A program made the position numbers and the translations under genes. From an uncultured Eubacteriales bacterium (GTDB lineage Bacteria > Acidobacteriota > Aminicenantia > Aminicenantales > UBA4085): a stretch of 64,000 nt of DNA. This document shows positions 14,897 to 28,426 of the stretch, one piece after another (positions within the stretch are counted from its first letter, which is position 1; the number at the start of each line of letters is the position of its first letter). The notes beneath the pieces are model-generated. The model did not search any database. It was not told the origin of the DNA and worked only from the letters and a program-made list of their open reading frames with translations. Where the stretch lies: contig CAZKXI010000002.1 in the NCBI GenBank assembly GCA_964556755.1, positions 88,263 to 152,262 of the forward strand. Direction: 5' to 3'.

Positions 14897-14939
14897 GCGC
14901 GCCTGGGGTGACTCGAACACCCGACCAACGGTTTAGGAA
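14897..14939. repeat. attL: 43-bp direct repeat (3' portion of tRNA-Arg)
   Basis: gcgcgcctggggtgactcgaacacccgaccaacggtttaggaa identical to 28384-28426. Confidence 0.85.
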
Positions 14940-14956
14940 GGCGGGATATGCTGGAT

Positions 14957-16105
14957 TTAATTATAGCGTATTGAATCACTTGGGAGCCGCTTGATTTTTA
15001 CGGTGTCGACTTTTTGACGGGATGGATCCATGATTTCGCCCAGCCGCTCAACGGCCCGGCGCATGTTCTCCGGCGTCGGATGGCAATAGCGCATGGTCGT
15101 TTGAATCGACGCATGCCCGAGCACCTTGGAGACCGTGACCAGGTCGACGCCGGCCTCGACCATCTTCGAGGCCGCGGTATGCCTCAGGTCATGGAAGCGG
15201 ACTCCTGTGATCCCCGGATCATCCTCATCGTTGAGATCCGTCTTCGCCTTCCTGCAGGCCGCATGGAAGGCCGTCTTCACGTCCTGGACTGGCTTCGTCG
15301 GATCGGCGCCGGGGAAGACGTATTCCCCCTTCCTGGGAAGGACGGCCAGGGCCTCCATGACAGCGCTGTTGACGGGCACCTTGCGGCCCCTGCCGCTCTT
15401 GGAGTCCTCGATATTGATATAGCCGCGGACCAGGTCGACGTTTGTCCATCGGAGGCCCAGGATCTCGCTCCGCCGCATGCCCGTGTTCAAGGCCACTATG
15501 AGGACAGGGCGGAACGTGTTCGACGCCGACCGGAGGAGCCGATGAGCCTCTCCCGCCGACAGGATCCGCTCTCGAGCGTTGGCCTCTTTCAGCCTTCGGA
15601 CGCGTCGGATGGGGTTCTTCTCGATTCTCCCCCACTCCTCAGCCTTGTTGAAGAGGGTCTTCAGGCATGTCAGCTCTCGGTTGACCGTCGCCGGCGAGAT
15701 CGGAGCGGACTTCTTCGCGTTGTAGTGCTTGACCCGCTCGGCCCGCCGGCCGGCCTTGAACCGCTCCACGTCCTCGGAGCCGATCCCCTGGAGGGAGCGC
15801 CCGGAGAAGTAGCGCTTGAGGTTGTCCAGAAGGATCTCGTCCCGCTTCCAGGAGCGCTTGTTCTGCTTACAGTAGACCTCGAGGAATTCGTCTGCGAAGG
15901 CATCGAAGGGAACGGGATCCCCGCCAGCCTTCTTGAAGCCGAGCCGCTCATTCAGGAGCTCGATGCGGAGCTTCGCCAGGGCGTTCCGGGCCTGTTCCTT
16001 AGTGTATCCCCCGAGCTGACGGATTCGCTTCCCTCGGAAGGTGAAGTCGATATGCCACCTCCCATCCTTTTGGATTAGGTTCCGGTCATTCTTCGGTTTG
16101 ACCAT
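14957..16105 (-). CDS. int: tyrosine-type site-specific integrase (phage integrase family)
   Basis: C-terminal catalytic region RFHDLRHTAAS..LGHASIQTTMRYCH (R..HxxR..Y) and N-terminal SAM-like/arm-binding region; lies immediately inside attL. Confidence 0.85.
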   Translation of the reverse strand: MVKPKNDRNLIQKDGRWHIDFTFRGKRIRQLGGYTKEQARNALAKLRIELLNERLGFKKAGGDPVPFDAFADEFLEVYCKQNKRSWKRDEILLDNLKRYFSGRSLQGIGSEDVERFKAGRRAERVKHYNAKKSAPISPATVNRELTCLKTLFNKAEEWGRIEKNPIRRVRRLKEANARERILSAGEAHRLLRSASNTFRPVLIVALNTGMRRSEILGLRWTNVDLVRGYINIEDSKSGRGRKVPVNSAVMEALAVLPRKGEYVFPGADPTKPVQDVKTAFHAACRKAKTDLNDEDDPGITGVRFHDLRHTAASKMVEAGVDLVTVSKVLGHASIQTTMRYCHPTPENMRRAVERLGEIMDPSRQKVDTVKIKRLPSDSIRYN

Positions 16106-16315
16106 CGCGTCCTCCCCCTCCCGCTCACGCGTTAGGATTGGGAGAGGGAGCCGAAGCCCCCTCTCCTGGTCGACCTTGTCGCCCTCGCCTTACCTCTTCC
16201 AGCACCTTGACGGGCAAGGATTCATCAACGCGGATCCGGCCGAACAGCAGATAATTCTCGATCATCATCTGAATCATCTCCGACTTCCGTTCGTCCATGA
16301 TCCGGATTGAACCTC

Positions 16316-16498
16316 TCAGGCCGTCTTCCCGGCCTTGACGCGAGTGATGGCCTTGCCCAGCCCGTCCGCGATAGTCTGGAGGCGGGTCCGCTCCGAAGGG
16401 CGCATGATCCAAGACAGCTCTTCGATCATGCCCAAAATTGCCCGTCTCATTTCCTCGGCCACATCGACCAGCCCTGCCATCGCCTCAGGATCTGTCAT
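16316..16498 (-). CDS. small hypothetical phage-like protein
   Basis: 60-aa ORF overlapping the next gene's end by 14 nt; no domain recognised. Confidence 0.25.
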   Translation of the reverse strand: MTDPEAMAGLVDVAEEMRRAILGMIEELSWIMRPSERTRLQTIADGLGKAITRVKAGKTA

Positions 16499-16928
16499 TG
16501 TTCCCCGTCCCGGCTACGTAGACCTTGCCGAGCCGGCTGATGGCGCCGTGTGCTTCGACATAGGCGGTCAGCAGCTCAGCTGCAGCCTTGGCCTGATCGA
16601 TGGAGAGGACAAGCTCGAGCCCGCCCCCGGCCTTGTCCTTGAAGAAGACGGCTGTGGTTCCGTCGACGGTTCGCTCCCCGTCTGTCGATACCTCGGACGA
16701 GATGGTGGCCTCAGCGTCGCAGAGCCAGGCCATGATATCGGCCTTCTCCAGCGCCGGCTTGCAGTCCTCGAACTTGATCTCGAGATCGAGCTCGATTCCA
16801 GGGCCATCCTCAACCTCGAGGGCAAGCCCCTTTCCCCCATCGACCAGGGCCCGAGGGCCCTTCGCCTTGATTGCCCCGCCGAAGCGGAATGCTCCCGCGG
16901 CTCCAGTTGGTTCTGCTTTCTGTTTCAT
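16485..16928 (-). CDS. hypothetical phage-like protein
   Basis: Start at internal Met (MKQKAEPTG..) with AAGAGG RBS; 147 aa; no family recognised. Confidence 0.4.
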   Translation of the reverse strand: MKQKAEPTGAAGAFRFGGAIKAKGPRALVDGGKGLALEVEDGPGIELDLEIKFEDCKPALEKADIMAWLCDAEATISSEVSTDGERTVDGTTAVFFKDKAGGGLELVLSIDQAKAAAELLTAYVEAHGAISRLGKVYVAGTGNNDRS

Positions 16929-16947
16929 GAATGACCTCTTGGGAGCT

Positions 16948-17253
16948 TCAGCTGGCAGCCGTAGCGGCCCGGCCATCCAGGAACAGGTCCGACAATCCAT
17001 CCAGGATTTCAGCAGCCAAAAGCCGACGCGACGCGGTCGCCATATCCGCGCTCATTTCGCGCCATACCTTGCCGAAGAGCAGCATCCCCCTCCTTGCTTC
17101 AGCGCTGTCCCTGAGCATCCGAGCGAACTCCTCCGCCGCCAGCTGCAGCTTCTCGTTGCCCGGCATGGGCCCCCGGGCAGACGCTACCCCCACTTTGCGC
17201 CGGCGCTTGATTGCCGGAGCGGCCTTGACCACCGCGGACTTCTTGGACTTCAT
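16948..17253 (-). CDS. hypothetical Lys/Arg-rich small protein
   Basis: Start at MKSKKSAVV with AGGAGG RBS; basic N-terminus. Confidence 0.4.
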   Translation of the reverse strand: MKSKKSAVVKAAPAIKRRRKVGVASARGPMPGNEKLQLAAEEFARMLRDSAEARRGMLLFGKVWREMSADMATASRRLLAAEILDGLSDLFLDGRAATAAS

Positions 17254-17275: not shown

Positions 17276-17482
17276 TTATTTACGACGCCTCGAGGCGCTC
17301 GTAGCGGTTTCTTCGACGCGGCCTTGGAGGTACTGACCAAGGTCGGCCGGATCGATTCGGACCAGACGGCCGACGCGGTACACCTTCAACCGGCCGGAAT
17401 TGATGATCTTGTACGCAGTCGCTCGACTTACCTTGAGGATCCGCCGCAAATCCTGCGGACTTAACAGCTCCATCGTGTTCAT
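17276..17482 (-). CDS. excisionase/AlpA-like helix-turn-helix DNA-binding protein
   Basis: MNTMELLSPQDLRRILKVSRATAYKIINSGRLKVYRVGRLVRI: HTH typical of the excisionase-family DNA-binding domain; AGGAGAA RBS. Confidence 0.55.
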   Translation of the reverse strand: MNTMELLSPQDLRRILKVSRATAYKIINSGRLKVYRVGRLVRIDPADLGQYLQGRVEETATSASRRRK

Positions 17483-17542
17483 CGTTTTCTCCTGTGGAGT
17501 GATGGGGGCGGTCCCGCCCGCCCCCTTCCTCCCTTCCATTGC

Positions 17543-17788
17543 CTAGCGTCCCCGGACCGGGATCAGATAGCCGCAGAGGGCCCTCCGGTTCCCGCGTCGG
17601 ATCAGCACCGAATGACGGAGGGAACGAAACATCCCGCCGTCTTCGTGGAGCGCCTCGAAGTGAGCGCGGAAGCGATGAGCAGCGGGCTCCGATCCGCGCA
17701 TCACCTCGGCCTGGAGGCAAGCCATGCACTCCTCGGCCTGGAAGTCCGCCGGGATTGGCTCCGGCCGGCGCTTCCTTCGTCCGAACAT
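17543..17788 (-). CDS. hypothetical protein
   Basis: 81-aa ORF in island, Cys/His-containing, no family recognised. Confidence 0.25.
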   Translation of the reverse strand: MFGRRKRRPEPIPADFQAEECMACLQAEVMRGSEPAAHRFRAHFEALHEDGGMFRSLRHSVLIRRGNRRALCGYLIPVRGR

Positions 17789-17933
17789 GTCAGACCTCCT
17801 CAGGGCAAGTCTTATGACCAGCCCTCTGTATTCCTTACTATAACATTATATCACTTAATAGCACTTTGTCAAGTGGCATTGTGGCGTCGGATTCGCCTTC
17901 GTTGTAGAATCAATCCTGCGCTGGGATTAGAAA

Positions 17934-18140
17934 ATGCCCGACAAGAAAACCTCAAATGATCTCATGACGAAACAAGAGGTCATGGCATATCTCAGGATCA
18001 GCCATCAGACCCTCTTCCGGATGATGAAATCGGGAGCTTTCCCCTACTTCAAGCTCGAGCGGAAGGTACTGTTCCGGAAGTCTGACGTCGACGCTTACCT
18101 GGAAGCCCACCTAGTGACCCCGACGCGGTCCCGGAGATAG
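17934..18140 (+). CDS. excisionase-family helix-turn-helix DNA-binding protein
   Basis: LMTKQEVMAYLRISHQTLFRMMKSGAFPYFKLERKVLFRKSDVDAYL: canonical excisionase-family HTH; low-GC context. Confidence 0.6.
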   Translation: MPDKKTSNDLMTKQEVMAYLRISHQTLFRMMKSGAFPYFKLERKVLFRKSDVDAYLEAHLVTPTRSRR

Positions 18141-18550
18141 CTCCTATCTTCCTTTGCCCCCTGCCTCCTTTGGCCGAGCTCCTGGAGATCGCCAGTCCTG
18201 GGCCGCAGGATGCACGCTGCGGGCCTCTGTGGCCGATAACTTGAGCCGGGGATGGGTAGGGTACAGGGGAGGCGGAGGGCAAAGCCAGCAGTGCTGGATT
18301 TGCCGGCTCAGGAATTGAGCGCGGGAGCTTTCCTTCTTCGTCAGGCCAAGTTCGGATAAGGTCGGGGCGTCATCACGCGGTTCCACGTAGGCACCGCGTG
18401 GCCCCGTTTTCGTTCCGCCGGCCTTTGCGCCCTGCGCCCGATCTGTAGCGGCCAGCAACTCCCCGAGCTTGCGCTCGGCCCGTAGGGCGTTCGGCCAGGG
18501 CGTCCTCGCCGGCAGGACAAGAGCGGGCGCTTGACCGGTCATCGCTCCGG

Positions 18551-20659
18551 CTATCCATTCCATTTCTTCACGCTGAACTTGCCCACCTCGCCGGCGTCCT
18601 GGACCGTGTCGACGATGAACTCCGACACCTTGCGCCCTCCAATATCGAAGTGAAGGTGATACGTCGCCTTCATTCCACGCCGACGATCTCCCAGCATGGA
18701 CTTTCCACGCGGCGAATCGAGCGGGATGATGGCCTCGGGGCCCGCTTCGCCGGCCAGGAATCCGCCGCCCCGCGAGACAGCCGGTCCGTCGAGAATACCG
18801 CCCTCGGCCAGCGGCGCCGGCTGGGCCTTGATCGCCGCGATCTGGATCGCCCCCTGCGCCAGCGCCAGCGCCAGCATGATCGGCCCCAGGGGCAGGAAGG
18901 GCTTTGTCGCCAGCGCGGAGGTAGCCGCCATCGCGGTATTGATCATCGCCTCGGCGATGGCCCATGACTTCTCTTTGTTCCACGCCTCGCGCTTTGCCGC
19001 CGCCTTCTTGCCCTCGAACTCCTCATCGAGCGCTTCGAGCGCCGCCGCTTTCTCCTCCTCGCTCATCAGGCTGTCTTCGATGGCCTTCTTTCGGGCCTCG
19101 TACTCGGCATTGAGACGCTCTAGATCCCGGTCCAGGTTGGCCTGGTGCAAGGCGTCGATGGCGCCGAAGACGCCGGAGGCGGCCTGGCCGAGGTTCTGCA
19201 TGTCGGAGAGGATCTTGTTGATCTTGGTCTCCCAGGCCTGCTTCGCCGTCTCCGCCGCCTCAACCGCCGCTTGCCCGGCGGCCAGGAAGCCCATGCGCAT
19301 GGGGCCGAGGATCTCATTCTGACCTTCCTCCATCGCCTGGAACACGCCCTTCCAGCCATCATCCGTTTCCTCGATGATGCCGGGGATCTCATCGTCGAGA
19401 GTCTTTGTCAGCTTGAGATACTTCTTAATCTCATCGTTCACATCATCGACGGCCTTGGCTTGGGCCTTCCAGCCTTTATTGATCTCGCCCAGGGTCTTGC
19501 TCTGCTGCTTGATCGGCCCGTCGCTGGCGCGCCCGACTTCGTTGACACCGCCGGCCGCCTCACGCGCCGCGCTTCGGAACGCGTCAAGGATAGCCGGGCC
19601 CTTCTCGGTCTCCATAAGCAGGGCCTTCAGCTTGATCCCGTTGACCTCGTAGGAGGCCCCGGTCGAGTCAAGGAGCGCGACAAGCTCGGCCTGGCTCTTG
19701 CCCTCGCGTACATGGAGCGGGATCGACTTGACGACCTCGTCCGAGTATTCGCGGGCGCTGAACGCTAGCCGGCCGAACTGCGCCGAGGTCATGCCAGCCG
19801 AAAGCGCCGCGTCGCGCAACCGGTTGGAGAAATCGACATTCCTTTCCGTCGCCTCGGCCGTTGCCCTCCGGACCTCATCTTGGGTTGCAATGAGATCGAG
19901 CAACGTATCGGCCGCGTCTTTCACCTTGGAGACAAAGGGGCCCAGGGCATCCTTCAAGACGTTGCCAAGCGCCTCCTTGAGCTCGCCGATGGATTTTGTC
20001 GCCTGGCTTAGCTGCCCGCCGAAGGTATCGGTCTCCGCCGTCGAGCGCTGATACATCGTCTCCAACTGGCGAAGCAACTCGGCCTGCTTCTCCATCGGAG
20101 ACAGGCTCTCGTCGACCTTGATACCGACGCGGCCGAGGGCCTGGTAGCTCCCTTCGAGCCCCTTTGTCACCATCATGGTCGCCGAGTGAAGGTCGGTCCC
20201 CATCGTGGACGCCAGCCCCATCGCGCCCTTCATAGCCCGGTCAATGCCCTGCTGGTCAAGGTCCGTCAACTGGAGCATCAGCGCCTGAGCGGCCTCGATC
20301 TCGTCATCCGTGTAGCGCGTCGCCCGCTGTTGCGCCGAAGCCCAGGCCGTGTAATGCGCCAGGTTGCCTTCGACCGTCCGGCCCGTGGATTCCAGCGCCG
20401 CCCTCAGATTCCGGTCGGCCTGCTCCTGCTCCATCGCGCCCTTGATCGAGTCGCGGAACAGGTCCACCACCTCGCGCCCGGCCCGCTGGAACAGCTGCGC
20501 CGCGATCTGCCCGGCGGCGAACTGCTTCCACAGCCCCCCGAGCGCGGAGTCGGTCTTCGGGGCCTGGCCGCTCATCTCCTCCAGCGAGGCGTTCACGTCG
20601 CGGATCTTCTTGGCGCTATCTCCCGTATTGGCACGAATGTCGAGGTTTACATCGGGCAT
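18551..20659 (-). CDS. phage tail tape measure protein
   Basis: 702 aa, long Ala/Glu/Lys/Leu-rich coiled-coil, internal hydrophobic segment (LPLGPIMLALALAQGAIQIAAI), typical of a tape measure protein. Confidence 0.6.
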   Translation of the reverse strand: MPDVNLDIRANTGDSAKKIRDVNASLEEMSGQAPKTDSALGGLWKQFAAGQIAAQLFQRAGREVVDLFRDSIKGAMEQEQADRNLRAALESTGRTVEGNLAHYTAWASAQQRATRYTDDEIEAAQALMLQLTDLDQQGIDRAMKGAMGLASTMGTDLHSATMMVTKGLEGSYQALGRVGIKVDESLSPMEKQAELLRQLETMYQRSTAETDTFGGQLSQATKSIGELKEALGNVLKDALGPFVSKVKDAADTLLDLIATQDEVRRATAEATERNVDFSNRLRDAALSAGMTSAQFGRLAFSAREYSDEVVKSIPLHVREGKSQAELVALLDSTGASYEVNGIKLKALLMETEKGPAILDAFRSAAREAAGGVNEVGRASDGPIKQQSKTLGEINKGWKAQAKAVDDVNDEIKKYLKLTKTLDDEIPGIIEETDDGWKGVFQAMEEGQNEILGPMRMGFLAAGQAAVEAAETAKQAWETKINKILSDMQNLGQAASGVFGAIDALHQANLDRDLERLNAEYEARKKAIEDSLMSEEEKAAALEALDEEFEGKKAAAKREAWNKEKSWAIAEAMINTAMAATSALATKPFLPLGPIMLALALAQGAIQIAAIKAQPAPLAEGGILDGPAVSRGGGFLAGEAGPEAIIPLDSPRGKSMLGDRRRGMKATYHLHFDIGGRKVSEFIVDTVQDAGEVGKFSVKKWNG

Positions 20660-20711
20660 GATCTTGCTCCTGTGCTTGGTGTCTGACTGTCATCCGATTC
20701 CGGGCAACGGC

Positions 20712-21170
20712 TCACCCGCGGCCCAGGATTTTCATGATCTCATCGTCGAAATACTTCTTCAGGAGATCGCGCTTCGCCGTGTCTGAGAGGTTCATGAACA
20801 TCCGCTGCGGGATCTTCCCGCCGGCTGTGCCCATGTTGTGGAAGTAGGCGATCAGCTCCATGCGCCCCTTGACGGATACCCGGCCATGATGCGGACTCAG
20901 TACCTCCGTCAGGATGGAATCCAGCATCTCGCCGGTCCTCCGGAGGTCGACGCTTCCGGCGCTGACCCCCTTGCGCTTCGCGTAGGCCTCTGAGTAGGGC
21001 TTGAACTTCTTCCCCATGTAATCGACCCCTCGAGCGGTCTTGCGGAGGATGATCCTCTTCACCTCTTCGACGAGCTTCTGCATGGGTTCGGCGGACTCCA
21101 GGAATTCCTCGATCCGCCGCAGCTGGCCGATGGACGCGGCCAGCCCGCGGATGTTGACAGAATCGCCCAC
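20712..21170 (-). CDS. phage virion morphogenesis (tail completion, Mu gpG-like) protein
   Basis: 152 aa; size and composition resemble the phage virion morphogenesis family; adjacent to tape measure. Confidence 0.4.
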   Translation of the reverse strand: MGDSVNIRGLAASIGQLRRIEEFLESAEPMQKLVEEVKRIILRKTARGVDYMGKKFKPYSEAYAKRKGVSAGSVDLRRTGEMLDSILTEVLSPHHGRVSVKGRMELIAYFHNMGTAGGKIPQRMFMNLSDTAKRDLLKKYFDDEIMKILGRG

Positions 21171-21195: not shown

Positions 21196-21522
21196 TCAGT
21201 CGGAACGATCCGCCCGCGAGAAATGGAACTGAATCAGGCCCTGAAAGTCCCGGTCCCCGATCTGGTGCAGATCGTGGAGCACGGCCGCCCTCCGGTCCGC
21301 GAAGTCCCGATTCAGGGCCGTCAGCTCGTTCTTCGCCTCGGAGATCGCGCCGAAGTCCGTCACGTCCGGATCCGCGATCGTCGCCCGGCATCGTCTCATC
21401 TTGGCCAGGATGACGTCGCATTCCTTGACGGCCGCCTCGATCTTCTGCTTCTTCTCCTCTTCCCCCGCCGTTATCCCCGCCGCGATTCTTTCAAGTGGGT
21501 CCATGTTGTTCTCTCCTATCAT
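21196..21522 (-). CDS. hypothetical phage protein
   Basis: Acidic coiled-coil-like 100-aa ORF. Confidence 0.3.
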   Translation of the reverse strand: MIGENNMDPLERIAAGITAGEEEKKQKIEAAVKECDVILAKMRRCRATIADPDVTDFGAISEAKNELTALNRDFADRRAAVLHDLHQIGDRDFQGLIQFHFSRADRSD

Positions 21523-21755
21523 TCCTTGTTCGTCTGCCCCTGCCCGCCGGTGCTCGTATCGACCCGAAGGCAGACACCGCTCCGGATCAGGGCATCCCAG
21601 GCCGCCCGGTCGACCGCCGTCTCGATGGTCTCGAAGATCGCCAGCGGCCGCGGTGCATGCCTTGTCATGTCCACCAGGAAGCGCCGGCCGTCCATGAGGC
21701 CGACGTGGATCTGGCCGTCATCGTCGAGACGCAGCTCGACAGCCTTGGTGCGCAT
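21519..21755 (-). CDS. hypothetical phage protein
   Basis: 78-aa ORF, 4-nt overlap with the downstream gene. Confidence 0.3.
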   Translation of the reverse strand: MRTKAVELRLDDDGQIHVGLMDGRRFLVDMTRHAPRPLAIFETIETAVDRAAWDALIRSGVCLRVDTSTGGQGQTNKE

Positions 21756-21765
21756 GGCCGACCAG

Positions 21766-22164
21766 TTACCCGATCAGCGCTTTCGCCGCCGCGTCATAGT
21801 CGGGCGTCACGTCCAGCCAGCCCAGCTGCCGAATCCCGTTCAGCGCAGTCAGCCGGTCGGTCGTGCTCCCGACGCCGTTGGAGAAGTCGACTCCGGCAAC
21901 GGCCCCGTTGAGGCCGGCGCCGCCCTGCAAGTGCTGAACGTAGTAGACGACGGGCCGGCCGTCGATCAGCCGCACGTGGCCGGGGACGTACATCTCGGCC
22001 AGGGAAGAGGTCGGCCCGGCGCAGGTGTCCTCGCAGCCGTGACTGTGAACCGCCGTCCATGCCGTGTAGCGGGAGGACGTGGTCCCCATTCCGCCGACGA
22101 AGTCGATCCCCCAGGCCGTCCCGGTGTACCCGGCAACCGGATGCTTCAGAGTGTAGGTCTCCAT
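21766..22164 (-). CDS. hypothetical phage protein (G[IV]DF..G.G.TSS motif, paralog of 22181-22537)
   Basis: Start METYTLKHP at 22164 with GGAGG RBS; motif GIDFVGGMGTTSS. Confidence 0.4.
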   Translation of the reverse strand: METYTLKHPVAGYTGTAWGIDFVGGMGTTSSRYTAWTAVHSHGCEDTCAGPTSSLAEMYVPGHVRLIDGRPVVYYVQHLQGGAGLNGAVAGVDFSNGVGSTTDRLTALNGIRQLGWLDVTPDYDAAAKALIG

Positions 22165-22180
22165 GATAAACCTCCAATGT

Positions 22181-22537
22181 TTAAGATTCACGGCCCGCCA
22201 AGGCCGAGTTTTGCGATGCCGATTCCGCGGGCTTCGGGGTCCGCTCTGCCTCATCCGAAATATCAACGCAACCGAGCTCATACACCATCCAATCCCGATC
22301 GAGGATGCTGGAGGTCGAGCCCCTTCCATCGCTGAAATCGATCCCCCCGAAAACGCCGGTAAACCCCGGCCGGGGATGCCTCAGACAATAGACCAGCCGC
22401 TTGATCCTGGGAGCCCCGCCTACGCCCGGAAATGCCTTGCGCTCCTCCAGCCGCTTCTGCAACCGTCGCAGCTCATCGAGCAGCTGCAGATAGTGGGTCT
22501 TTAACAGGCCCATCCGCTGGTCTTCTTCATAGAGCAT
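22181..22537 (-). CDS. hypothetical phage protein (paralogous motif GIDFSDGRGSTSS)
   Basis: Shares the G[IV]DF-x-GxGxTSS motif with the neighbouring gene; start uncertain (22537 or 22564). Confidence 0.35.
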   Translation of the reverse strand: MLYEEDQRMGLLKTHYLQLLDELRRLQKRLEERKAFPGVGGAPRIKRLVYCLRHPRPGFTGVFGGIDFSDGRGSTSSILDRDWMVYELGCVDISDEAERTPKPAESASQNSALAGRES

Positions 22538-24086
22538 GGCTTTCCTCGCTCCGGAGCTGGGCAAGCTCCCCCTCGAGCCGCCTCGTCCAGGCCCGGATCT
22601 CCTCGGCCGCCATGCCCTCGAGCTGGGTCGGGTAGGGCATCGACAGATCGAAGGGATCCGTCAGCCATTGGGACGGCGACCCATTCCATAGGGCCGTTAT
22701 GACTACCCCTCGATTCGCGCCACAGCCGACGCAGACCCCTGCCGCGGCGTTGGCAACGTCATCCTGGGCATTCGGGAAATGGTCGACGGAATCCTTGCCG
22801 CCCGCCCTGGCCCGACGCTCCAGGCTCCGCAGCTGCTCCCGCAGCCGGGCATTGTCCAGGAGCTCGACCCGGTTCTGCATGACCAGCGGGAGAAACTCCA
22901 GATAGATAGCGCTCTTGTCCTTGTCCGATGGGATGTAGCGGATCCCATACTTCCGGAAGGCATCCGCCGGCCACTCTCCCCCGTAGCGGTCTCCCGTCAC
23001 CCTCTCGATCCCGTAGGATCGAAGGAGCTGGGCGTAGTCGGACACAACCGACTCCGGGGCGAAGGGCGGACGCCTCTCCTCGAGGGCGTCCAGGATCACC
23101 TTGCCGCGGGGATCTCGATGGGCTATGGCCAGCGTGAAGCTGTCCCGGCGCCCGCCGCTGGGATCTACGAAGGCCTCGTAGATGCCGCGGTATGCCCGCG
23201 GGAGCCGCGTCCGGTCGGGCACTATGACGGACTCGATCGCCTCGGACGTCAGGTAGCTCTCGAGGTCCGACCTGAAATTGGCATTCCATTCCGATTCAGC
23301 GGCAGCAGCGTCGGCGCGGAAGGCCCGCTCGATCAGCCGCTCCTTGATGGTCGGATTCATGGCCCTGGTCGGGGCCTGCCATACCAGGGCGTCCTCATCC
23401 TCGCGCCCCCACTTGTCGCGGAAGGCCTCGTACAGGACGCCCGATTTCGAGTAGGGGCTCGAGATGCCGAAGATCATCCCGCCGGGGATCGTCGCCAGGG
23501 ACGGCCGCAGAGCGTTCAGCACCTCCGCCGCCGGATTCGTACCCTCGGCCCGCCAGAAGGCCAGCTCGTCGCAGATCGCGGCGACGACGGTATAGCCCCG
23601 GAGGGCGCGGTAGCTGCATGTTCCGATCTTGATGCCGACCTGATTCCGAAGGCTGATCTCCCAGGCCAGGTCACTCTCGACCTCCTGGCCCAGGATCTTC
23701 GAGGAGCTCAGGATTCCCTTGATGTAGCCCAGGATATTCCGGGCCTGATCACGGTCGGTGGCGATGACCATAACCCAGGCCGTCTCGCCGGCCGCCAGGT
23801 AGGGGCGCCAGTCATGGAAGAGCGCCAGATAACAGGCCAGGATCGCGGCCATGAAGCTCTTCCCCCCGCGGCGCCCGACGATCGCATAAACCTCGGCAGG
23901 CATGCGCTCGGGGAGATTCTCCCGCCCGGTGTACCTCCGGAAGGCCTCGAGCTCATCGGGGTCCATCGGCAGACAAAAGACGGCCTTCAGGAAGACGATC
24001 CAGTTGCGCCAGGTATCCATGTCCTTGAACATCCGGCCGAACAGCTGCCGATCGCCTAGGGCGTCCAGGATCGTGAATTCGCTCAT
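22527..24086 (-). CDS. terL: phage terminase large subunit
   Basis: 519 aa; N-terminal ATPase with Walker A-like VGRRGGKSF and downstream nuclease-like region; typical terminase_6-type architecture. Confidence 0.75.
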   Translation of the reverse strand: MSEFTILDALGDRQLFGRMFKDMDTWRNWIVFLKAVFCLPMDPDELEAFRRYTGRENLPERMPAEVYAIVGRRGGKSFMAAILACYLALFHDWRPYLAAGETAWVMVIATDRDQARNILGYIKGILSSSKILGQEVESDLAWEISLRNQVGIKIGTCSYRALRGYTVVAAICDELAFWRAEGTNPAAEVLNALRPSLATIPGGMIFGISSPYSKSGVLYEAFRDKWGREDEDALVWQAPTRAMNPTIKERLIERAFRADAAAAESEWNANFRSDLESYLTSEAIESVIVPDRTRLPRAYRGIYEAFVDPSGGRRDSFTLAIAHRDPRGKVILDALEERRPPFAPESVVSDYAQLLRSYGIERVTGDRYGGEWPADAFRKYGIRYIPSDKDKSAIYLEFLPLVMQNRVELLDNARLREQLRSLERRARAGGKDSVDHFPNAQDDVANAAAGVCVGCGANRGVVITALWNGSPSQWLTDPFDLSMPYPTQLEGMAAEEIRAWTRRLEGELAQLRSEESHAL

Positions 24087-24451
24087 CGGGGCTGTCCCTC
24101 GCCACGGCCCCCATCGTCGACGTCCCAGGAGGGCCGGGAAGGGCCTAGGCGCCGCTTCCAGAAGGATTCCCGGCGGGAGGTCAAGGATTCGGCATCCAGG
24201 GCCTCTCTGCGCTCGTCAAAGTAAGGCTTTGCAGCCTCCAGCGCCGCCAGGAGCTCGGGGAGCATGCGAAGCTTCACGGTCACGCCGCGGCCCGTAGGCG
24301 CAACCTCGTCTCTCCCTTCCTCCGGGCAGGGCAGCTTGTAGACGCGGACGTCCAGGTAATCGACCCCGTTGTGCACGACGCCGGCGATCTGCACCTCCTC
24401 GTAGCGGTTCTTTCGGAGTACGGCCAGGATTTCGCGGCTGTCGGGCCTCAT
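24083..24451 (-). CDS. hypothetical phage protein
   Basis: Start MRPDSREIL at 24451 overlapping the upstream gene's stop (ATGA); no family recognised. Confidence 0.35.
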   Translation of the reverse strand: MRPDSREILAVLRKNRYEEVQIAGVVHNGVDYLDVRVYKLPCPEEGRDEVAPTGRGVTVKLRMLPELLAALEAAKPYFDERREALDAESLTSRRESFWKRRLGPSRPSWDVDDGGRGEGQPR

Positions 24452-24966: not shown

Positions 24967-25104
24967 TGGAAAACCGCCCCAAAAGTCGACAAATGCCCAG
25001 TTTTACAGGGGAAAACGGTGGTTTTATAGACCGTTGGTTTAGGGCAATTCCGGGGCATTCCAGGGGGTCCAGGAGGGGTACTCGGCCGAGAATTTCGTCT
25101 CAGA

Positions 25105-25319
25105 ACCTGTTCCCGCCCACTCCGTTTTTTTCGACCCTCGGGAACAGGTTTTTGCCCTATACCAGTCTCCGACCTGTTCCCATGTCGGGAACAGATCCAA
25201 CAGGGGGAAAGCGTCGATCTGTCCGACCTGTCCGGACCTGTTCCCATACCTCCGGAACAGATGGTCAACCTGACTTGTTCCATTGTTCCCCCCCCTAGGG
25301 GGGAACATGGGAACAGGTC
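25105..25319. repeat. iteron array: >=9 copies of GGAACAG(G/A)T or ACCTGTTCCC, several as inverted pairs, plus the near-palindrome GTTCCCCCCCCTAGGGGGGAAC
   Basis: Seen directly at 25105, 25140, 25172, 25188, 25236, 25254, 25274-25290, 25301, 25310; sits immediately downstream of the replication ATPase gene and upstream of terS. Confidence 0.7.
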
Positions 25320-25332: not shown

Positions 25333-26706
25333 TCAATCATGGATTGCCTCATAGAGCCTGCGGCGGCCTTCCAGGCGTGACCGCCAGCTGGCGCCCTCCC
25401 CGCGAAGGAGTAGCGCCAGCGCCTTCCCTCGCCGGCCGATCTCGAGCTCCTCCTTGATCCACTCGATGAGGGCGGATTGCGTGAGCGGTCCTGGGGCTTG
25501 TCTGAGATGGTCTGCAATCGCGTCGATCCGGTCCTGGTCGGGGCTTGCGGCCAGCGTGAACAGCCCTTCCGGCGTCCGCTGCAGGAACGTCTGGGCCGGG
25601 GCGAAGCGGGACTTCTCCCCCGTCCCCAGCCGATAGAGCGCGTCGGGATCCGGTTCGCCGTCGTCCTCGATCTTCTGAAACGTCGAACGCTTGACGGGGT
25701 ACAGGCTCAGGGCGCAGTCGGCCAGGTCGACGATGGTGCTTGATCCCTTGCTTACGCGCTCGTTCGATTTCGGCGTGTGATGCGCCGCCTGAACGGTGAA
25801 GCCGCAGCTGGTCAGCTCGCGGAGGCGCCCCATGACCAGGCTCATGATCTCGTCGTCATTCTGCGTCCCGCTGTGGGAGCTTCTGAGGGTATCGAAAACG
25901 AGAAGGCTCCCAGCGGGGAGGCGCTTGTAGACGTCCCATCGGTCGGAGTCGAGCTTGGGAGGCGGCGTCGAGAAAGAGTAATGCCACAGGCTGATATCGT
26001 TGGCTCCGATCAGGCGGATCCTGTCGGCAACCCATGCGATCGGATTCTCATAGTCGATGATGACGACGGGGCGGCGCTTCGTCGGCAGGGAGAATATTGG
26101 ATTGCCGGAGGCGACGGCCTGGCCCGATTGCATGAAGAAGGTCGACTTGCCGGTGCCGCCTCGGGAGATCACAACCGTGACGGCCTTGTCGACCACGAGC
26201 TGATCGACGACGTACTCGATCGAGACGTCCAGGGCGGCAACCTCGCTTCCCGACATCAGGAAACGCGCCGGGTCGACCTCAGCCGGGCCCTTCGCAAGCT
26301 CCTCAATCTCTCGGTCGAGGATGCCGAGCAGCGCCTGGGCTTCGGTGTCCCAGGTTCCCGTTGCCTTGTAGTTGCGGATCTCGCGCTCGAGCAGCTTGGC
26401 TCGTTCCGAGTACTTCCGCTCGAGGCGCAGGGCTTGCACCTTAGCCTCGAATCCCGCCGGCGGCAGGAGATAGCAGCCGGAGAGCTCTTTGAATAGGGCC
26501 TCGAGGGAGCTGCCGCATTTGGCCGAGAGAAGGCCGTCCTCTACGGGCTTGGTCGGATCGTCCTCGCTGAGCTCAAGGATGGCCTCGGCAATCTTCCGCC
26601 GCGGCCCGGTGAAGAGGCCGACCGCGTAGCCTTCTGCGCGCTGCCGCTCGGGCTGCTCCTTGGCCGTGAAGAGAAGCTCACGTTCTAGAGTAATAGGGGA
26701 ATTCAT
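25333..26706 (-). CDS. RecA-fold AAA ATPase, replicative helicase/primase-associated (RepA/DnaB-like) protein
   Basis: Walker A VVISRGGTGKSTF, Walker B-like LLVFDTL; start MNSPITLE at 26706. Confidence 0.55.
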   Translation of the reverse strand: MNSPITLERELLFTAKEQPERQRAEGYAVGLFTGPRRKIAEAILELSEDDPTKPVEDGLLSAKCGSSLEALFKELSGCYLLPPAGFEAKVQALRLERKYSERAKLLEREIRNYKATGTWDTEAQALLGILDREIEELAKGPAEVDPARFLMSGSEVAALDVSIEYVVDQLVVDKAVTVVISRGGTGKSTFFMQSGQAVASGNPIFSLPTKRRPVVIIDYENPIAWVADRIRLIGANDISLWHYSFSTPPPKLDSDRWDVYKRLPAGSLLVFDTLRSSHSGTQNDDEIMSLVMGRLRELTSCGFTVQAAHHTPKSNERVSKGSSTIVDLADCALSLYPVKRSTFQKIEDDGEPDPDALYRLGTGEKSRFAPAQTFLQRTPEGLFTLAASPDQDRIDAIADHLRQAPGPLTQSALIEWIKEELEIGRRGKALALLLRGEGASWRSRLEGRRRLYEAIHD

Positions 26707-26786: not shown

Positions 26787-26990
26787 CTACCTCGGTTTCC
26801 TCTTCGTGGGGATGGAGCTTTTCTCGAGCTCGCGCTCTACGGCGGCCCAATCGACTCTGAGGCCGAAATGGGGCGGCCGCGAATGCGGGAGCTGGCCGGC
26901 CGAGATCAAGTTGTAAATGCGCTTGACCGAAAGCCCCAAGCGCTCGGCCGCCTCGGCGGGACGCAGCCAGCGGCGGACTATTTCAGACAT
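26787..26990 (-). CDS. excisionase/MerR-like helix-turn-helix DNA-binding protein
   Basis: MSEIVRRWLRPAEAAERLGLSVKRIYNLISAGQLP: HTH; ATG overlaps the upstream gene's stop. Confidence 0.5.
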   Translation of the reverse strand: MSEIVRRWLRPAEAAERLGLSVKRIYNLISAGQLPHSRPPHFGLRVDWAAVERELEKSSIPTKRKPR

Positions 26991-27240
26991 GGGCCGTCTC
27001 CTCGTGTTTGGAGTCGCCGGGCTCGATGGCCGGAAGAGGGCCTGGAAAGAGAAACCCCTCGGAGACGCCGAGGACGGCCGCGAGCCTAGAGGCCTGAGCA
27101 GCAGTCGGCAGCTCCCAGCCCCGCGAGATTCTGCTGAGGCGTGACGGGTGAAGCCCCGCGAGCGCCGCAAGCTGAATCTGGGGTAGGCCGCGGAAACGCA
27201 AAAGCTCTGCGATTCGGTTGGTTGGGGCTTCGTTCCTCAT
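26983..27240 (-). CDS. XRE/Cro-CI family HTH transcriptional regulator
   Basis: IAELLRFRGLPQIQLAALAGLHPSRLSRISRG: canonical XRE HTH; palindromic operator-like sequence just upstream (27305-27333). Confidence 0.6.
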   Translation of the reverse strand: MRNEAPTNRIAELLRFRGLPQIQLAALAGLHPSRLSRISRGWELPTAAQASRLAAVLGVSEGFLFPGPLPAIEPGDSKHEETAHV

Positions 27241-27304
27241 ACCCCAAATATAGACCGACAGAAGGAACTAATCAATGCTCATCTTATTTATTTACAACTA
27301 TTTA

Positions 27305-27333
27305 GACACTTTTTCTCGACGAGATAAAGTGTC
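27305..27333. promoter_or_regulatory. operator-like inverted repeat GACACTTT-N13-AAAGTGTC upstream of the Cro/XRE-like gene
   Basis: 8-bp perfect arms at 27305-27312 and 27326-27333 in an AT-rich intergenic region; a TTGACA (minus strand, 27330-27335) overlaps the right arm. Confidence 0.4.
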
Positions 27334-27355
27334 AATAAGACCGGAGGGCGAGGTT

Positions 27356-28096
27356 TTATATGCAGCCAGCAAGCGAGATTAAGTCGGCGATTGTCTCTAC
27401 ACCCTTCCTGATATGCGTCATAGAACACGGGCCCAAGCCACCCCATCGGCGCCAGTTTTGAGCTATGTATTGATAGCTTGGGCGAGTCGGCGTTTCCCTG
27501 AGATCGTACCAGCAGAGGTTTCTAAAGAAAGCGGGCTTGGTCCGTTCCTCTTTCTCGACCGCGTAGACTCGACCGATTTCGGATTTGATCCCCCCCCACA
27601 TGCCCTCCCATTCTCGCTGATTGGTCCAAGGGCTGATCCGAACATAAATGAACGCCTCTTCACGCCCGACGAACTCCTGCCAACAGTCGCCGCGACGATC
27701 CACCATCGACGCGGCATCCGGGCTCTGCATGACCTCGGCCAGGCTTCTCGGTCGCCCCGGACGTTTCGGCGCTGGATGGATAATATACTGACGAAGCTCG
27801 GGCCCTTCGGGGCCTTGGGGCCGGAGAGGACGACGGCAGATGATCTCGCTCCGGTAGACGAATCGCTCGATCGTCGCCAGGTCTCCGCTCCATTGCAGAT
27901 TGATCCTCCACCTCGAGCAGAAGTCGCCCCACTCATCAGAATATGAAAGTCCCCGGCTCTCCCCGCAGTGATCGAGCTGGCGGATGAATTCTTTGTTTCG
28001 TCGAAGCAGCTCGGCTCGCGCCAGGATCGGATCGAATGGGCGTTTGCTCTCCTCGATCTTGCGATTACGGAGATCAGGATCGATCTGAATAGCCAT
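27356..28096 (-). CDS. hypothetical cargo protein (no recognisable domain), in low-GC segment next to attR
   Basis: 246-aa ORF, Trp/Arg-rich, in distinctly AT-richer DNA between the repressor genes and the att site. Confidence 0.4.
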   Translation of the reverse strand: MAIQIDPDLRNRKIEESKRPFDPILARAELLRRNKEFIRQLDHCGESRGLSYSDEWGDFCSRWRINLQWSGDLATIERFVYRSEIICRRPLRPQGPEGPELRQYIIHPAPKRPGRPRSLAEVMQSPDAASMVDRRGDCWQEFVGREEAFIYVRISPWTNQREWEGMWGGIKSEIGRVYAVEKEERTKPAFFRNLCWYDLRETPTRPSYQYIAQNWRRWGGLGPCSMTHIRKGVETIADLISLAGCI

Positions 28097-28383
28097 GTCC
28101 GCCTCCCTGTGGCAGATCCCCGATTAAATAGAACCGGGCCAAGCGGTCAGGGATGATCCGCCGTTCGGGAGCGACCCTAGGCCCGGCTGATGTCATGGAT
28201 AGGTTCCTTCCTCAAACATAGGGTCCGCAACGGAGCAACGCAAGCGTCAATTTTGAGTGTCGACTTTTATGACGTGTTTTTTCGGTTTGGGCGGGATTTG
28301 GCGGGAATTGGCGGGAATGAGCCCCAAGGGCAAGGCTACGCGTAATGCGTTGATTTCTCAAGGTTTTAAGGGGTAAAAGGCAA

Positions 28384-28426
28384 GCGCGCCTGGGGTGACT
28401 CGAACACCCGACCAACGGTTTAGGAA
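28384..28426. repeat. attR: 43-bp direct repeat within tRNA-Arg 3' half
   Basis: Identical to 14897-14939. Confidence 0.85.

Follow-up and report, generated by a model that had tools for sequence, protein, structure and literature searches.

An island inserted at tRNA-Arg(CCT) with its own terminase and tape measure genes, probably a helper-dependent phage satellite

Results

Boundaries and gene content of the island

The window analyzed here, namely the whole stretch of 64 kb of DNA, contained a single intact tRNA-Arg(CCT) (ARAGORN and Rfam), and its 3' 43 nt were duplicated exactly at the distal end of an island of 13.4 kb (Table 1), in agreement with the tRNA-derived repeats described in the first-pass annotation. 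This pair was the only exact long repeat across the window (expected by chance, ~1e-17), other repeat families being at most 84% identical. The GC content of the island was 62.3% versus 68% in both flanks. The ORF flanking attR was assigned to melibiase/GH36 (1.6e-20); the distance of 58 nt previously proposed between the tRNA and the GH36 gene was obtained with ATG 14839 as the start, but not with GTG 14920 (the longest ORF), which would extend into the att copy. When attP and empty attB junctions were sought in JGI metagenomes, none were found, and one Logan contig was equal to the island because the de Bruijn graph breaks at the 43-bp repeat. A search of the window for a helper prophage found none.

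Table 1. Features of the island and its boundaries.
Feature	Position	Strand	Evidence or remark
attR, distal att core	14897..14939	.	Exact 43-bp copy of tRNA-Arg 3' part; repeat search
Tyrosine integrase, 382 aa, reading towards att copy	14957..16105	-	PF00589 1e-33; Int_N 9e-7; phrog_1 2e-78
Four small genes (57, 60, 147 and 101 aa)	16125..17253	-	No family match where tested; called in Logan contig
57-aa gene	16125-16298	-	Scanned against PADLOC only, no match
60-aa gene	16316-16498	-	No Pfam, PHROG or PADLOC match where tested
147-aa gene	16485-16928	-	Conserved in L146, dN/dS 0.29
101-aa gene	16948-17253	-	Conserved in L146, dN/dS 0.48
HTH_17 (AlpA/excisionase-type) protein	17276..17539	-	PF12728 1.4e-11; dN/dS 0.11
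81-aa gene, first of operon ending in integrase	17543..17788	-	91% identical in L146, dN/dS 0.14; no family match
Sigma-70 consensus promoter facing 81-aa gene/integrase operon	17845..17872	-	TTGACA-16-TATAAT, TG upstream; 12/12, consensus match only
Divergent HTH_17 protein, 68 aa	17934..18140	+	PF12728 9e-14; dN/dS 0.10
Swappable cassette with tape measure and neck genes	18116..21144	.	80-81% nucleotide homology to L146 breaks exactly here
Tape measure protein, 702 aa	18551..20659	-	phrog_1272 4e-8 (N-terminus); RcGTA tape-measure model 7e-5 (residues 609-691)
gpS/gpG-like tail-completion or Neck1 protein, 152 aa	20712..21170	-	phrog_26 4e-13; PF05069 1.2e-3, below Pfam cut-off
102-aa gene	21196-21504	-	No family match; conserved in L146, dN/dS 0.22
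78-aa gene	21519-21755	-	No family match; conserved in L146, dN/dS 0.34
132-aa repeat-domain gene	21766-22164	-	Alignments; dN/dS 0.48
118-aa repeat-domain gene	22181-22537	-	Alignments; dN/dS 0.28
Large terminase, 519 aa, ATPase and nuclease domains	22527..24086	-	phrog_2 3e-23; dN/dS 0.12
PC4-like (single-strand DNA binding type) protein, 122 aa, between terminase genes	24083..24451	-	30-34% identity to L002/L004 counterparts
Probable small terminase, 172 aa	24448..24966	-	Position and weak fold match
Iteron array, putative replication origin	25104..25319	.	GGGAACAGGTC x7, both orientations; repeat count
AAA_25 (RepA/DnaB-like, RecA-fold) replication ATPase	25333..26706	-	PF13481 1.2e-17; phrog_906 1e-10; phrog_19 9e-5
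HTH_17/MerR-like regulator	26787-26990	-	PF12728 3e-8; weak MerR match 1.6e-3
XRE/Cro-type regulator	26983-27240	-	PF01381 8e-8
246-aa gene, first after tRNA	27356..28096	-	No Pfam, PHROG, NCBIfam or PADLOC match
int-alpA RNA motif (RF02996), leader of 246-aa gene	28118..28187	-	43.5 bits vs gathering score 35.8
Intact tRNA-Arg(CCT)	28384..28458	-	ARAGORN, Rfam; 3' 43 nt (28384-28426) = attL, proximal att core

An integrase, three HTH_17 genes and an XRE regulator, as listed at first pass, were recovered with Pfam and PHROGs. On the other hand, the separate MerR-like regulator of that list was the same gene as the third excisionase-type HTH_17, and therefore one gene had been counted twice. 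The int-alpA motif occupied the same position in a relative, L004 (56.9 bits).

Replication and packaging genes

The RecA-fold ATPase with an adjacent iteron array was found as described. Seven copies of the repeat were present in the array at ≤2 mismatches, and all three exact copies in the window fell there. This AAA_25-iteron architecture was conserved in relatives, in which iterons occupied the same position and their sequence differed between elements. The array is a putative replication origin or, possibly, a packaging site.

As for the proposed terminase pair, the large subunit was substantiated by both profile and fold, whereas the small subunit was only probable, since its product gave no HMM match. 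The top 43 PDB matches of the AlphaFold2 model of the large subunit (pLDDT 85) were large terminases, the best being that of HK97 (8e-19), and the Walker A, Walker B and nuclease acidic residues were invariant in the terminase alignment. The N-terminus carried the Pfam label MJ0330_N. No close homologue of the terminase was found among 50,697 phage records, with the best match showing 29.5% identity over 51%. The protein encoded between the two terminase genes had no direct Pfam match, and the genes at this position in L002 and L004 carry PF02229 PC4.

Tail-related genes and missing virion genes

The gpG-like gene and the tape measure were both confirmed, and form an exchangeable accessory cassette outside the family core: in the closest relative, L146 (81% identical), an unrelated cassette of 1.95 kb, containing a lipoprotein, cleanly occupied the same place, and the slot contained SocA_Panacea in L004 and Abi_C in L006. 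Along its full length, the tape measure was 37% identical to that of phage contig L150 (699 aa), and it shared 28% identity with annotated tape measures of Rhodobacter phages. Its N-terminus was 47-54% identical to L144, L145 and L149, the highest value being for residues 1-237 against the 1081-aa tape measure of L144. The gpS-like protein was 45-47% identical over its full length to 159-162-aa proteins of L144, L145 and L150. The two repeat-domain genes contained, in total, three copies of a ~45-aa domain (Y.L.HP..GFTG..GG[IV]DF..G.G[ST]TSS...GC) with 41-46% identity to a 90-105-aa protein, which sits one gene past the major capsid gene in the same three phage contigs. Full-size temperate phage contigs contained homologues (37-54% identity) of the neck gene, repeat domain and tape measure. 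The island proteins matched just these three genes, gene order was different, and the terminase of these phages belonged to the Terminase_6 family, unlike that of the island.

The previous failure to recognize a portal, capsid, protease, tail tube or sheath gene was reproduced: profile scans of the coding ORFs and the ten longest alternative-frame ORFs gave no match to any of them. The interval from the terminase to the tape measure contained just five ORFs, which at 78-152 aa are too small for a portal or HK97-fold capsid protein. Tube, baseplate and lysis genes were absent from the island, and tblastn with the capsid, portal and tube genes of the putative helper lineage turned up no fragments. 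A 370-aa antisense ORF had no family match and was broken in L146. PADLOC gave no match for the six unassigned ORFs scanned, the AAA_25 gene or the PC4-like gene, and no relaxase or coupling-protein matches were found. The ORFs taken as genes were uninterrupted, and the dN/dS values of all ten genes compared with their L146 orthologues were 0.10-0.48; these genes are under purifying selection.

Distribution of the terminase family

More than 4,400 homologues of the terminase were found, and relatives were encoded at 407 genome loci, whose hosts were Aminicenantes, Acidobacteriota, 'Deltaproteobacteria', Binatia, Rokubacteria and many Alphaproteobacteria. The large terminase was adjoined by a putative small terminase in 75 of 94 loci, and an integrase was present in 56. 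The integrase lay ≤ ~1.5 kb from the terminase in five loci, and minimal members had essentially just the two terminase genes ahead of the integrase. L002, L004 and L006 were syntenic relatives with the layout of the island. Twenty-six elements were bounded by att repeats of 37-56 bp (tRNA-derived where inspected); their sizes had a median of 13.3 kb (interquartile range, 12.5-15.1 kb; range, 8.9-18.5 kb), and none had a recognizable portal. No common portal or capsid cluster was found in the family, and a portal scan of six abundant gene clusters downstream of the terminase gave no match. Virion parts made up the accessory cassettes of the family, namely a baseplate hub, a prohead protease and tape measures from three unrelated families. 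In one clade member, L091, a true portal adjoins the terminase, and therefore the clade is not exclusive to portal-less elements (at least one exception).

Discussion

The island is probably an intact, helper-dependent phage satellite, which would replicate itself and use its own terminase, stolen capsids and chimeric tails. Of the two possibilities raised in the first-pass annotation, these results favor a satellite with its own terminase and tape measure, as a reading of the genes, over a decayed prophage.

Among the other explanations, a defence or interference island, in which the terminase, tape measure and neck protein act mainly as decoys that poison phage assembly or packaging with little or no self-transduction, is unlikely. 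There are known cases in which satellites or prophages stop phages from packaging DNA or assembling tails (e.g. Rta of PLE11), and the cargo of the cassette slot in relatives (SocA_Panacea, Abi_C and the lipoprotein) is in line with such a role. However, strictly conserved catalytic residues and the pairing of the terminase subunits point to enzymatic packaging rather than a decoy, tight sizes of about one-third of a typical temperate phage genome together with a replication module fit encapsidation, and the PADLOC scan of six unassigned ORFs and the AAA_25 and PC4-like genes was negative; furthermore, interference and transduction can coexist.

We regard it as very improbable that the island is a miniature, autonomous temperate phage with a capsid and portal too divergent or small to recognize. 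Six small genes and the 246-aa gene carry no assigned function, a GenBank contig of 16.7 kb with a similar organization was deposited as 'Virus Rctr16k', and HMM libraries miss many environmental phage proteins, such as a portal-sized 493-aa protein of L144 without a match. Nevertheless, the five ORFs between the terminase and the tape measure are too small for either protein, the sole unassigned ORF of >200 aa (246 aa) sits at the regulatory end, and the antisense ORF is broken in L146; tube, baseplate and lysis genes are absent, and minimal relatives have essentially two terminase genes before the integrase.

Equally little credence is given to a decayed or defective prophage, no longer mobile after deletions had removed the head genes and most tail genes of a full-size temperate phage. 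Although phage-type genes (terminase, tape measure, neck protein and integrase) without capsid, portal and tube, and the resemblance of the tape measure and neck gene to those of full-size phages, would suit such an origin, the ORFs taken as genes are uninterrupted, with dN/dS values of 0.10-0.48 in the ten compared with L146, att repeats are perfect, tblastn gave no fragments of the missing genes, and the terminase family and gene order differ from those of the tail-gene-sharing phages. In addition, 25 other att-bounded elements, from several phyla, show the same compact layout within a narrow range of sizes. Finally, a non-viral integrative mobilizable element or plasmid-like island, with a terminase-like nuclease-ATPase co-opted for e.g. 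resolution or transfer, is hardly credible in spite of a core (integrase, Rep with iterons and HTH regulators) of that kind and an MJ0330_N label that is not phage-specific by name, because the whole modeled protein is predicted to fold as a bona fide large terminase in both domains and is paired with a small-terminase-like partner, family accessory cassettes are virion parts, and relaxase or coupling-protein matches are lacking.

As a satellite, the island may operate as follows. Insertion at tRNA-Arg(CCT) is evident from the structure; the tyrosine integrase would have placed the element within the 3' half of the gene, regenerating the tRNA and leaving the 43-bp partial copy. XRE and HTH_17 regulators may hold the element quiescent until a helper phage or stress signal leads to excision, after which the AAA_25 ATPase would fire the adjacent element-specific iterons and amplify the 13.4-kb genome. 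The terminase, with its HK97-like fold, would then cut and pump DNA into procapsids through portals, both presumably supplied by the helper, the element having none of its own. The tape measure and gpS-like neck protein, apparently copied from a temperate siphovirus-like phage lineage, may replace those of the helper and therefore, by analogy with the PLEs of Vibrio, yield chimeric tails.

In PLEs (phage-inducible chromosomal island-like elements) of Vibrio cholerae, a tape measure, chaperone and baseplate hub encoded by the element itself become part of chimeric tails, and these tail genes were shown by experiment to be needed for transduction (Nature 2026, PMC12987554). The island resembles them as a small integrative element with its own replication module and with a tape measure and partner tail gene homologous to those of phages likely to be parasitized; chimeric tails are demonstrated for PLEs and predicted for the island. 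Compared by description, PLEs are Vibrio-specific, hijack the terminase of the helper ICP1 without a large terminase of their own, and have a baseplate hub and tail assembly chaperone where the island has a gpS-like neck gene. The PLE tape measure is only ~20% identical to that of ICP1, versus 37-54% between the island and phages. cf-PICIs are integrative satellites encoding both terminase subunits, as in the island, but their defining feature is a set of genes for a major capsid protein, portal, protease, head-tail connectors and HNH endonuclease, so that they steal tails only (PMC10690885); some carry predicted tape-measure genes (PMC12987554). None of these capsid-forming genes were detected in the island, which would have to take its capsids and most tail parts from a helper. 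The island is like classical PICIs/SaPIs in size (~13 kb, about one-third of the genome of a temperate phage), in lacking capsid and lysis genes, and in its integrase, regulators of AlpA/Xis and XRE type, packaging module and replication gene with iterons directly behind it. Classical PICIs/SaPIs differ in having at most a small terminase or redirecting protein, with the large terminase coming from the helper, and no tape measure; a primase domain was not detected in the island. EPIPs of Mycolicibacterium, compared here by description alone, are ~11-kb satellites whose genes include a tape measure, a small terminase and head-tail joining genes, and their particles have altered tail lengths (bioRxiv 2025, PMC12822802); they differ in the serine integrase, annotated scaffold and capsid genes, actinobacterial host and the absence of a reported large terminase. 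'Virus Rctr16k' (GenBank KX853514), from a methane-oxidizing enrichment culture, shows the same order of a replication gene, 172-aa and 93-aa genes, terminase, small genes, a 580-aa 'tail protein' and integrase. The N-terminal ~200-270 residues of its terminase show 28-30% identity to the island terminase, and this partial virus genome deposit is a distant relative that was not treated as a satellite.

Against a satellite, the terminase is 45-55% identical across phyla, yet would have to dock with unrelated portals of different helpers. Two findings go beyond the first-pass annotation: the island belongs to a large family, and full-size phages have homologues of its repeat domain, neck gene and tape measure. 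The terminase pair defines this family, which is apparently undescribed so far.

Boundaries and excision of the element

One intact tRNA-Arg(CCT) was found by both ARAGORN and Rfam, and its 3' 43 nt are duplicated exactly 13,487 bp away, confirming the perfect att repeats that the first-pass annotation had derived from this tRNA gene. This repeat is the sole exact long repeat of the 64-kb window. The enclosed 13,444 bp have a GC content of 62.3%, against 68% on either side, and carry 21 genes, 20 of them on the minus strand, as judged from the GC3 coding signal and from the genes called independently on a Logan contig. Farther along the window, GC dips again but less strongly (63.6-64.8% vs ~68%). 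The flanks consist of ordinary chromosomal genes (melibiase/GH36, MscS-cNMP channel and CHASE2 cyclase), and the tyrosine integrase and tRNA-derived repeats place the block among small integrative elements that have their own recombinase and well-defined att sites. Read as its longest ORF, the GH36 gene begins at a GTG within the att copy; an internal ATG with a signal-peptide-like start and a promoter-like site is the more plausible start. The 58 nt originally given between the tRNA and the GH36 start corresponds to the distance from this likely ATG to the att copy, and the GH36 gene and its promoter were probably left intact by the insertion.

The junction expected in an excised circle (attP) is …AAGGGGTAAAAGGCAA + 43-bp core + GGCGGGATATGCTGGA…, and that of the empty site (attB) is …GGAATCTG + 43-bp core + ACCGCTGCTC…; each gave 0 matches in JGI metagenome contigs, the sources of which lack the organism of the island. 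A 13,500-bp Logan contig (L001, SRR12133403) was considered as a circular form and rejected: its ends lie inside the 43-bp repeat and represent a graph break at k=31. With an exact att repeat that exceeds k=31, such contigs comprise the interior plus ~2x(k-1) bases; in the syntenic relative L003 (SRR9617863), subtracting the 50-bp repeat from 13,502 leaves the interior, and 60 bp of k-mer overlap brings it to the 13,512 bp of the contig. Island-sized Logan contigs are explained by this graph break and were therefore rejected as evidence of excision or of circles, but unitigs of this kind might offer an inexpensive way to find att-bounded elements in Logan.

Coordinates of features in the window and in compared loci
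Sequence	Position	Strand	Feature
Window	12809-14920	-	Longest ORF of GH36/melibiase gene
Window	14839		Favoured ATG of GH36 gene
Window	14846-14874		Promoter-like site of GH36 gene
Window	14897-14939		att copy (duplicate of tRNA 3' 43 nt)
Window	17845-17872	-	Sigma-70 consensus match
Window	18115		Homology with L146 restarts
Window	18116-21144		gpS-like and tape-measure cassette
Window	21145		Homology with L146 ends
Window	21223-22335	+	370-aa antisense ORF over tiny genes
Window	21766-22537	-	Two adjacent genes with ~45-aa domain
Window	28118-28187	-	int-alpA RNA motif, 43.5 bits
Window	28384-28426		att copy within tRNA gene
Window	28384-28458	-	tRNA-Arg(CCT)
Window	42000-46000		Second GC dip
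L004	5282-5350		int-alpA RNA motif, 56.9 bits
L004	15375-15950		SocA_Panacea gene
L006	15626-16279		Faint Abi_C gene
L091 (IMG/VR 3300025289_000256)	2036-3742		Terminase followed by portal
L144/L145	6121-6438		~45-aa-domain gene
L146 (JGI 3300040744)	3009-4957	-	Replacing cassette, four genes
L150	6648-6920		~45-aa-domain gene

Gene content, replication and regulation

Island proteins were searched against Pfam, PHROGs and NCBIfam, and the ten longest alternative-frame ORFs against PHROGs. Profile matches bore out the previous assignments of the integrase (a tyrosine recombinase), the XRE regulator and the AAA_25 RepA/DnaB-like ATPase. Three HTH_17 (AlpA/excisionase-type) genes were also recovered as annotated, but the "MerR-like" gene listed separately is the same as one of them. 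The iteron array was present as described, with seven copies of GGGAACAGGTC packed into 216 bp immediately downstream of AAA_25, and every exact copy of this sequence in the window falls inside the array. The syntenic relatives L002/L003, L004 and L006 carry arrays at the same position, with a different sequence in each. The ATPase followed by seven iterons would constitute an autonomous replication module; no primase domain was detected in the island.

An int-alpA RNA motif (RF02996; gathering score 35.8) was present in the island and in L004. Both copies occupy the interval separating the tRNA/attL from the first gene of the element, so the motif probably serves this subfamily of satellites as a conserved leader or regulatory RNA. 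A perfect sigma-70 consensus (TTGACA-16-TATAAT, with TG upstream), within DNA of 62-68% GC, faces the operon that begins with the 81-aa gene and ends with the integrase, while the 68-aa HTH_17 gene is oriented divergently; the arrangement looks like a tightly repressed excision switch. No defence genes were recognised by PADLOC in the AAA_25 and PC4-like genes, in six unassigned ORFs of the island or in two genes of the L146 cassette (see below).

The absence of capsid, portal, protease, tube and sheath genes, noted in the first-pass annotation, held against all three profile collections for the coding ORFs and against PHROGs for the ten alternative-frame ORFs. In tblastn searches, the capsid, portal and tube genes of the full-size temperate phage contig L144 had no match in the island, and neither helper genes nor a helper phage were found elsewhere in the 64-kb window. 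The antisense ORF over the tiny genes, considered as a hidden capsid gene, had no match and is broken in L146, the closest relative of the island. The only virion-type genes are those for the terminase, tape measure and neck protein. A complete tailed prophage would comprise terminase, portal, capsid, tube and lysis genes in at least 30 kb, and the block is 13.4 kb; lacking the set of capsid, portal and tail tube, it has the composition of a phage satellite.

Terminase

The large terminase proved genuine: with an AlphaFold2 model (pLDDT 85), the top 43 PDB matches in Foldseek were all large terminases, the best being HK97 (8e-19), and the two domains matched singly the G20c nuclease (TM 0.77) and the P74-26 ATPase (TM 0.66). 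Homologues show no variation in Walker A (GRRGGKS), Walker B (DE) or the acidic residues of the nuclease, and fold and motifs together are those of a phage large terminase, in which an ASCE ATPase is combined with an RNase H-like nuclease. Judged from these conserved residues and the predicted fold, the enzyme appears to be intact. The small terminase (172 aa) was only partly upheld: its position favors the assignment, as does a fold match to the small terminase of HK97 that is suggestive but falls short of significance, but no HMM matched, and it is best regarded as probable. A 122-aa PC4-like gene sits between the two.

No close relative of the large terminase was present among 50,697 phage records (best, 29.5% identity over half of the length), and identity across phyla was 45-55%. 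In an IMG/VR contig (L091), a terminase 47% identical to that of the island is followed directly by a true portal gene, the product of which is 26-27% identical to annotated portals; phages that encode a portal, or satellites that form capsids, thus belong to the clade as well.

Phage origin of the tail genes

The tape measure (702 aa) was substantiated by matches of its N-terminus to phrog_1272 and of its C-terminus to the RcGTA tape-measure model, and is homologous to annotated Rhodobacter phage tape measures. Likewise, the "gpG-like morphogenesis gene" (152 aa) corresponds to a gpS/gpG-like "tail completion or Neck1" protein (phrog_26, 4e-13). Among 46 homologues of the tape measure, a full-length orthologue (699 aa, 37% identity) occupies the tape-measure slot of L150, a full-size temperate siphovirus-like contig with a portal-sized gene, scaffold, capsid, Phage_tube_2 tube, chaperones, tape measure, tip genes and integrase. 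In L150 and a second phage contig, L149, the orthologues are placed after the tube and chaperone genes, and homology together with this position in real phages identifies the island protein as a tape measure. The N-terminus of a tape measure is its head-proximal end. The first ~240 residues are 47-54% identical to the tape measures of the phage contigs L144/L145 (1057-1081 aa) and L149 (811 aa), and these residues are all that the ~805-aa and ~1050-aa length classes share. Full-length orthologues (among proteins P0127-P0160), from satellites and from phage L150 alike, are no more than 32-37% identical, yet measure 682-747 aa, with 10 of the 12 in the range 694-704 aa; this steady length of ~700 aa at low identity fits selection on ruler length. 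The idea of a shorter tail, raised by the L144/L145 proteins, was dropped because of the 699-aa orthologue in L150.

The gpS-like protein is 45-47% identical, over its full length, to a 159-162-aa protein of L144, L145 and L150. These phages also share a ~45-aa domain (Y.L.HP..GFTG..GG[IV]DF..G.G[ST]TSS...GC), found once in a 118-aa and twice in an adjacent 132-aa gene product of the island, and in a 90-105-aa phage protein encoded one gene beyond the major capsid gene (41-46% identity). Elsewhere, 1.8 billion representatives yielded two weak matches, both to giant adhesin tandem repeats. A 179-aa family of L002, L004 and L006 was rejected as a homologue of the 132-aa protein, being coiled-coil and unrelated.

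Beyond the tape measure, gpS-like protein and repeat domain, no island gene matched these phages. The terminase of L144 and L145 belongs to the Terminase_6 family, and no homologue of the island terminase was detectable in L144, L145, L149 or L150. Given the different terminase, the limitation to three matches and the altered gene order, the island is not a deletion derivative of such a phage. Instead, the island borrowed three genes, the products of which are expected in or near the head-tail junction and in the tail lumen.

Selection and cassette replacement

The closest relative, L146, has a terminase protein 86% identical to that of the island and backbone DNA 80-81% identical. All 10 genes common to both, the four tiny genes included, gave dN/dS values of 0.10-0.48; these genes are under purifying selection, and the element is not decaying. 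Nucleotide homology is interrupted over a 3.0-kb stretch comprising the gpS-like and tape-measure genes; in L146, an unrelated cassette of 1.95 kb takes exactly the place of this stretch, so that the tape-measure/neck pair represents a swappable accessory module of a conserved backbone. One of the genes in the L146 cassette is NlpB/DapX-type lipoprotein-like (Pfam 4e-7), and the cassette may carry superinfection-exclusion or other cargo. The equivalent slot holds non-homologous tape measures in Rhizobium (TMP_3 family) and Methylobacterium (phrog_2276), and a DUF2213 prohead protease or a "baseplate hub" in other lineages. In L002, it contains a prohead-protease-like gene and also a gene whose product is 30% identical to a tail tube or chaperone of L144, encoded two genes before the tape measure.

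Distribution of the terminase-defined family

Public protein data contain more than 4,400 homologues of the terminase, and 407 loci were confirmed in species-representative genomes from Aminicenantes, Acidobacteriota/Terriglobia, "Deltaproteobacteria", Binatia, Rokubacteria and many Alphaproteobacteria, with Rhizobium, Methylobacterium, Bradyrhizobium, Mesorhizobium and Shinella as cultured carriers. Among the culturable strains are Rhizobium cremeum S302 (L035), Methylobacterium spp. (L031, L043), Bradyrhizobium sp. URHD0069 (L032), Shinella fusca DSM 21319 (L053) and Mesorhizobium tianshanense NBRC 102499 (L068). When ORFs were called and clustered in 97 loci, the widespread clusters were the terminase (94), its ~150-aa upstream partner (75) and the integrase (56); no portal- or capsid-like cluster was common to the family. 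An integrase lies within ~1.5 kb after the terminase in five loci, and the terminase pair is bracketed in 25 further loci by direct repeats of 37-56 bp, which derive from the flanking tRNA where inspected. The 26 bounded elements, including the island, have a median size of 13.3 kb (IQR 12.5-15.1 kb, range 8.9-18.5 kb), demonstrating that size is constrained across the family. No terminal repeats were found on 20 small family contigs.

Gene order is common to the island, L002/L003, L004 and L006: regulators, AAA_25, partner, PC4-like gene and terminase, followed by small genes, an optional ~700-aa tape measure, HTH_17 genes and integrase. L002 and L004, like the phage contig L150, stem from a soil or sediment series of ENA samples (ERZ2724xxxx-ERZ2725xxxx). 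In the variable regions, a SocA_Panacea gene follows the tape measure of L004 and a faint Abi_C gene adjoins the integrase of L006, which suggests toxin-antitoxin or abortive-infection cargo. A distantly related sequence of 16.7 kb (L143, KX853514), deposited as the partial genome of "Virus Rctr16k", has the same layout, with a replication gene, a 172-aa gene, a 93-aa gene, terminase, "tail protein" and integrase. Neither a capsid nor a portal is annotated in it, and the deposit may be a satellite under the wrong label.

Comparison with known satellites and proposed mechanism

The island may work like a PICI in integration, regulation, replication and size: an integrase, HTH_17 and XRE regulators, a Rep protein with iterons and an int-alpA RNA motif are present, and a primase domain was not detected. 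A classical PICI, in contrast, uses the large terminase of its helper and encodes at most its own small terminase, Ppi or Rpp. cf-PICIs carry both terminase subunits, as does the island (the small one only probably), but also their own major capsid, portal and prohead protease, none of which was matched here. The psu, delta, sid and alpha primase-helicase genes of P4-like elements had no Pfam or PHROG match among the island proteins. To our knowledge, known satellites either borrow the large terminase of the helper (P4, PICI, PLE and PICMI) or bring a whole capsid kit (cf-PICI), and full-text literature searches of incomplete coverage found no description of satellites with both terminase subunits but without a capsid. 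We class the element as a new satellite family with a new strategy.

By description, PLEs and EPIPs are like the island in carrying a tape measure. The core genes of Vibrio PLEs include a serine recombinase, RepA and TcaP, and EPIPs also use a serine integrase; the recombinase of the island is a tyrosine enzyme. With its tape-measure and gpS-like genes, homologous to those of L144, L145 and L150, the island has the PLE-type combination of a tape measure with partner tail genes. All Vibrio PLEs encode a tape measure and a chaperone, and PLE11 also a baseplate hub; the three PLE11 proteins were shown in chimeric tails, tape-measure deletion in PLE1, PLE4 and PLE11 lowered transduction by 96-99.9%, and predicted tape-measure genes in other satellites were also mentioned (PMC12987554). 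EPIPs of Mycolicibacterium, 11 kb in size, carry a tape measure (PMC12822802). Because PLE tails are chimeric (PMC12987554), the tail-substitution step of our model has direct precedent.

We consider it likely, on an in silico basis throughout, that the island is a helper-dependent satellite. Three features are established at the level of sequence: the architecture of integration, the pairing of a replication gene with iterons that look cognate to it, and a mobile cassette whose tape-measure and neck genes resemble those of helpers. In the proposed mechanism, a helper cue would lead to excision of the element and then to replication from its iterons; its own terminase would package the element DNA into procapsids made by the helper; and, by analogy with PLEs, its tape measure and neck protein would replace those of the helper in tails. 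Since ~13 kb is approximately one third of a temperate phage genome of 38-45 kb, as is also the case for SaPIs, small heads could conceivably take up the element as a monomer, or full heads as a trimer.

More tentatively, and with slightly less than even confidence, we propose a very large, unnamed, cross-phylum class of "packaging-autonomous, capsid-less" satellites. Their core would consist of the integrase, Rep with iterons, and a complete terminase acting on the portals and capsids of unrelated helpers, and their cassette slot (tape measure, neck, chaperone, prohead protease or baseplate hub) would be tuned to the local helper. If this is true, motor-only satellites stealing both capsid and portal represent a third, widespread strategy, and terminase-portal pairing is far less specific than assumed. 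Annotation pipelines likely mis-score such islands as "incomplete prophages". The occurrence of the family in culturable genera, such as Rhizobium and Shinella, makes the model testable, and the docking of a terminase on a foreign portal would become an experimentally approachable question. Chimeric-tail piracy, for which Vibrio PLEs are to date the sole demonstrated case, would then be widespread among bacteria of soil and sediment; the cassette swapped between 81%-identical relatives extends this discovery of 2025-26 beyond Vibrio, and the extension would take in uncultured Acidobacteriota- and Aminicenantes-type hosts.
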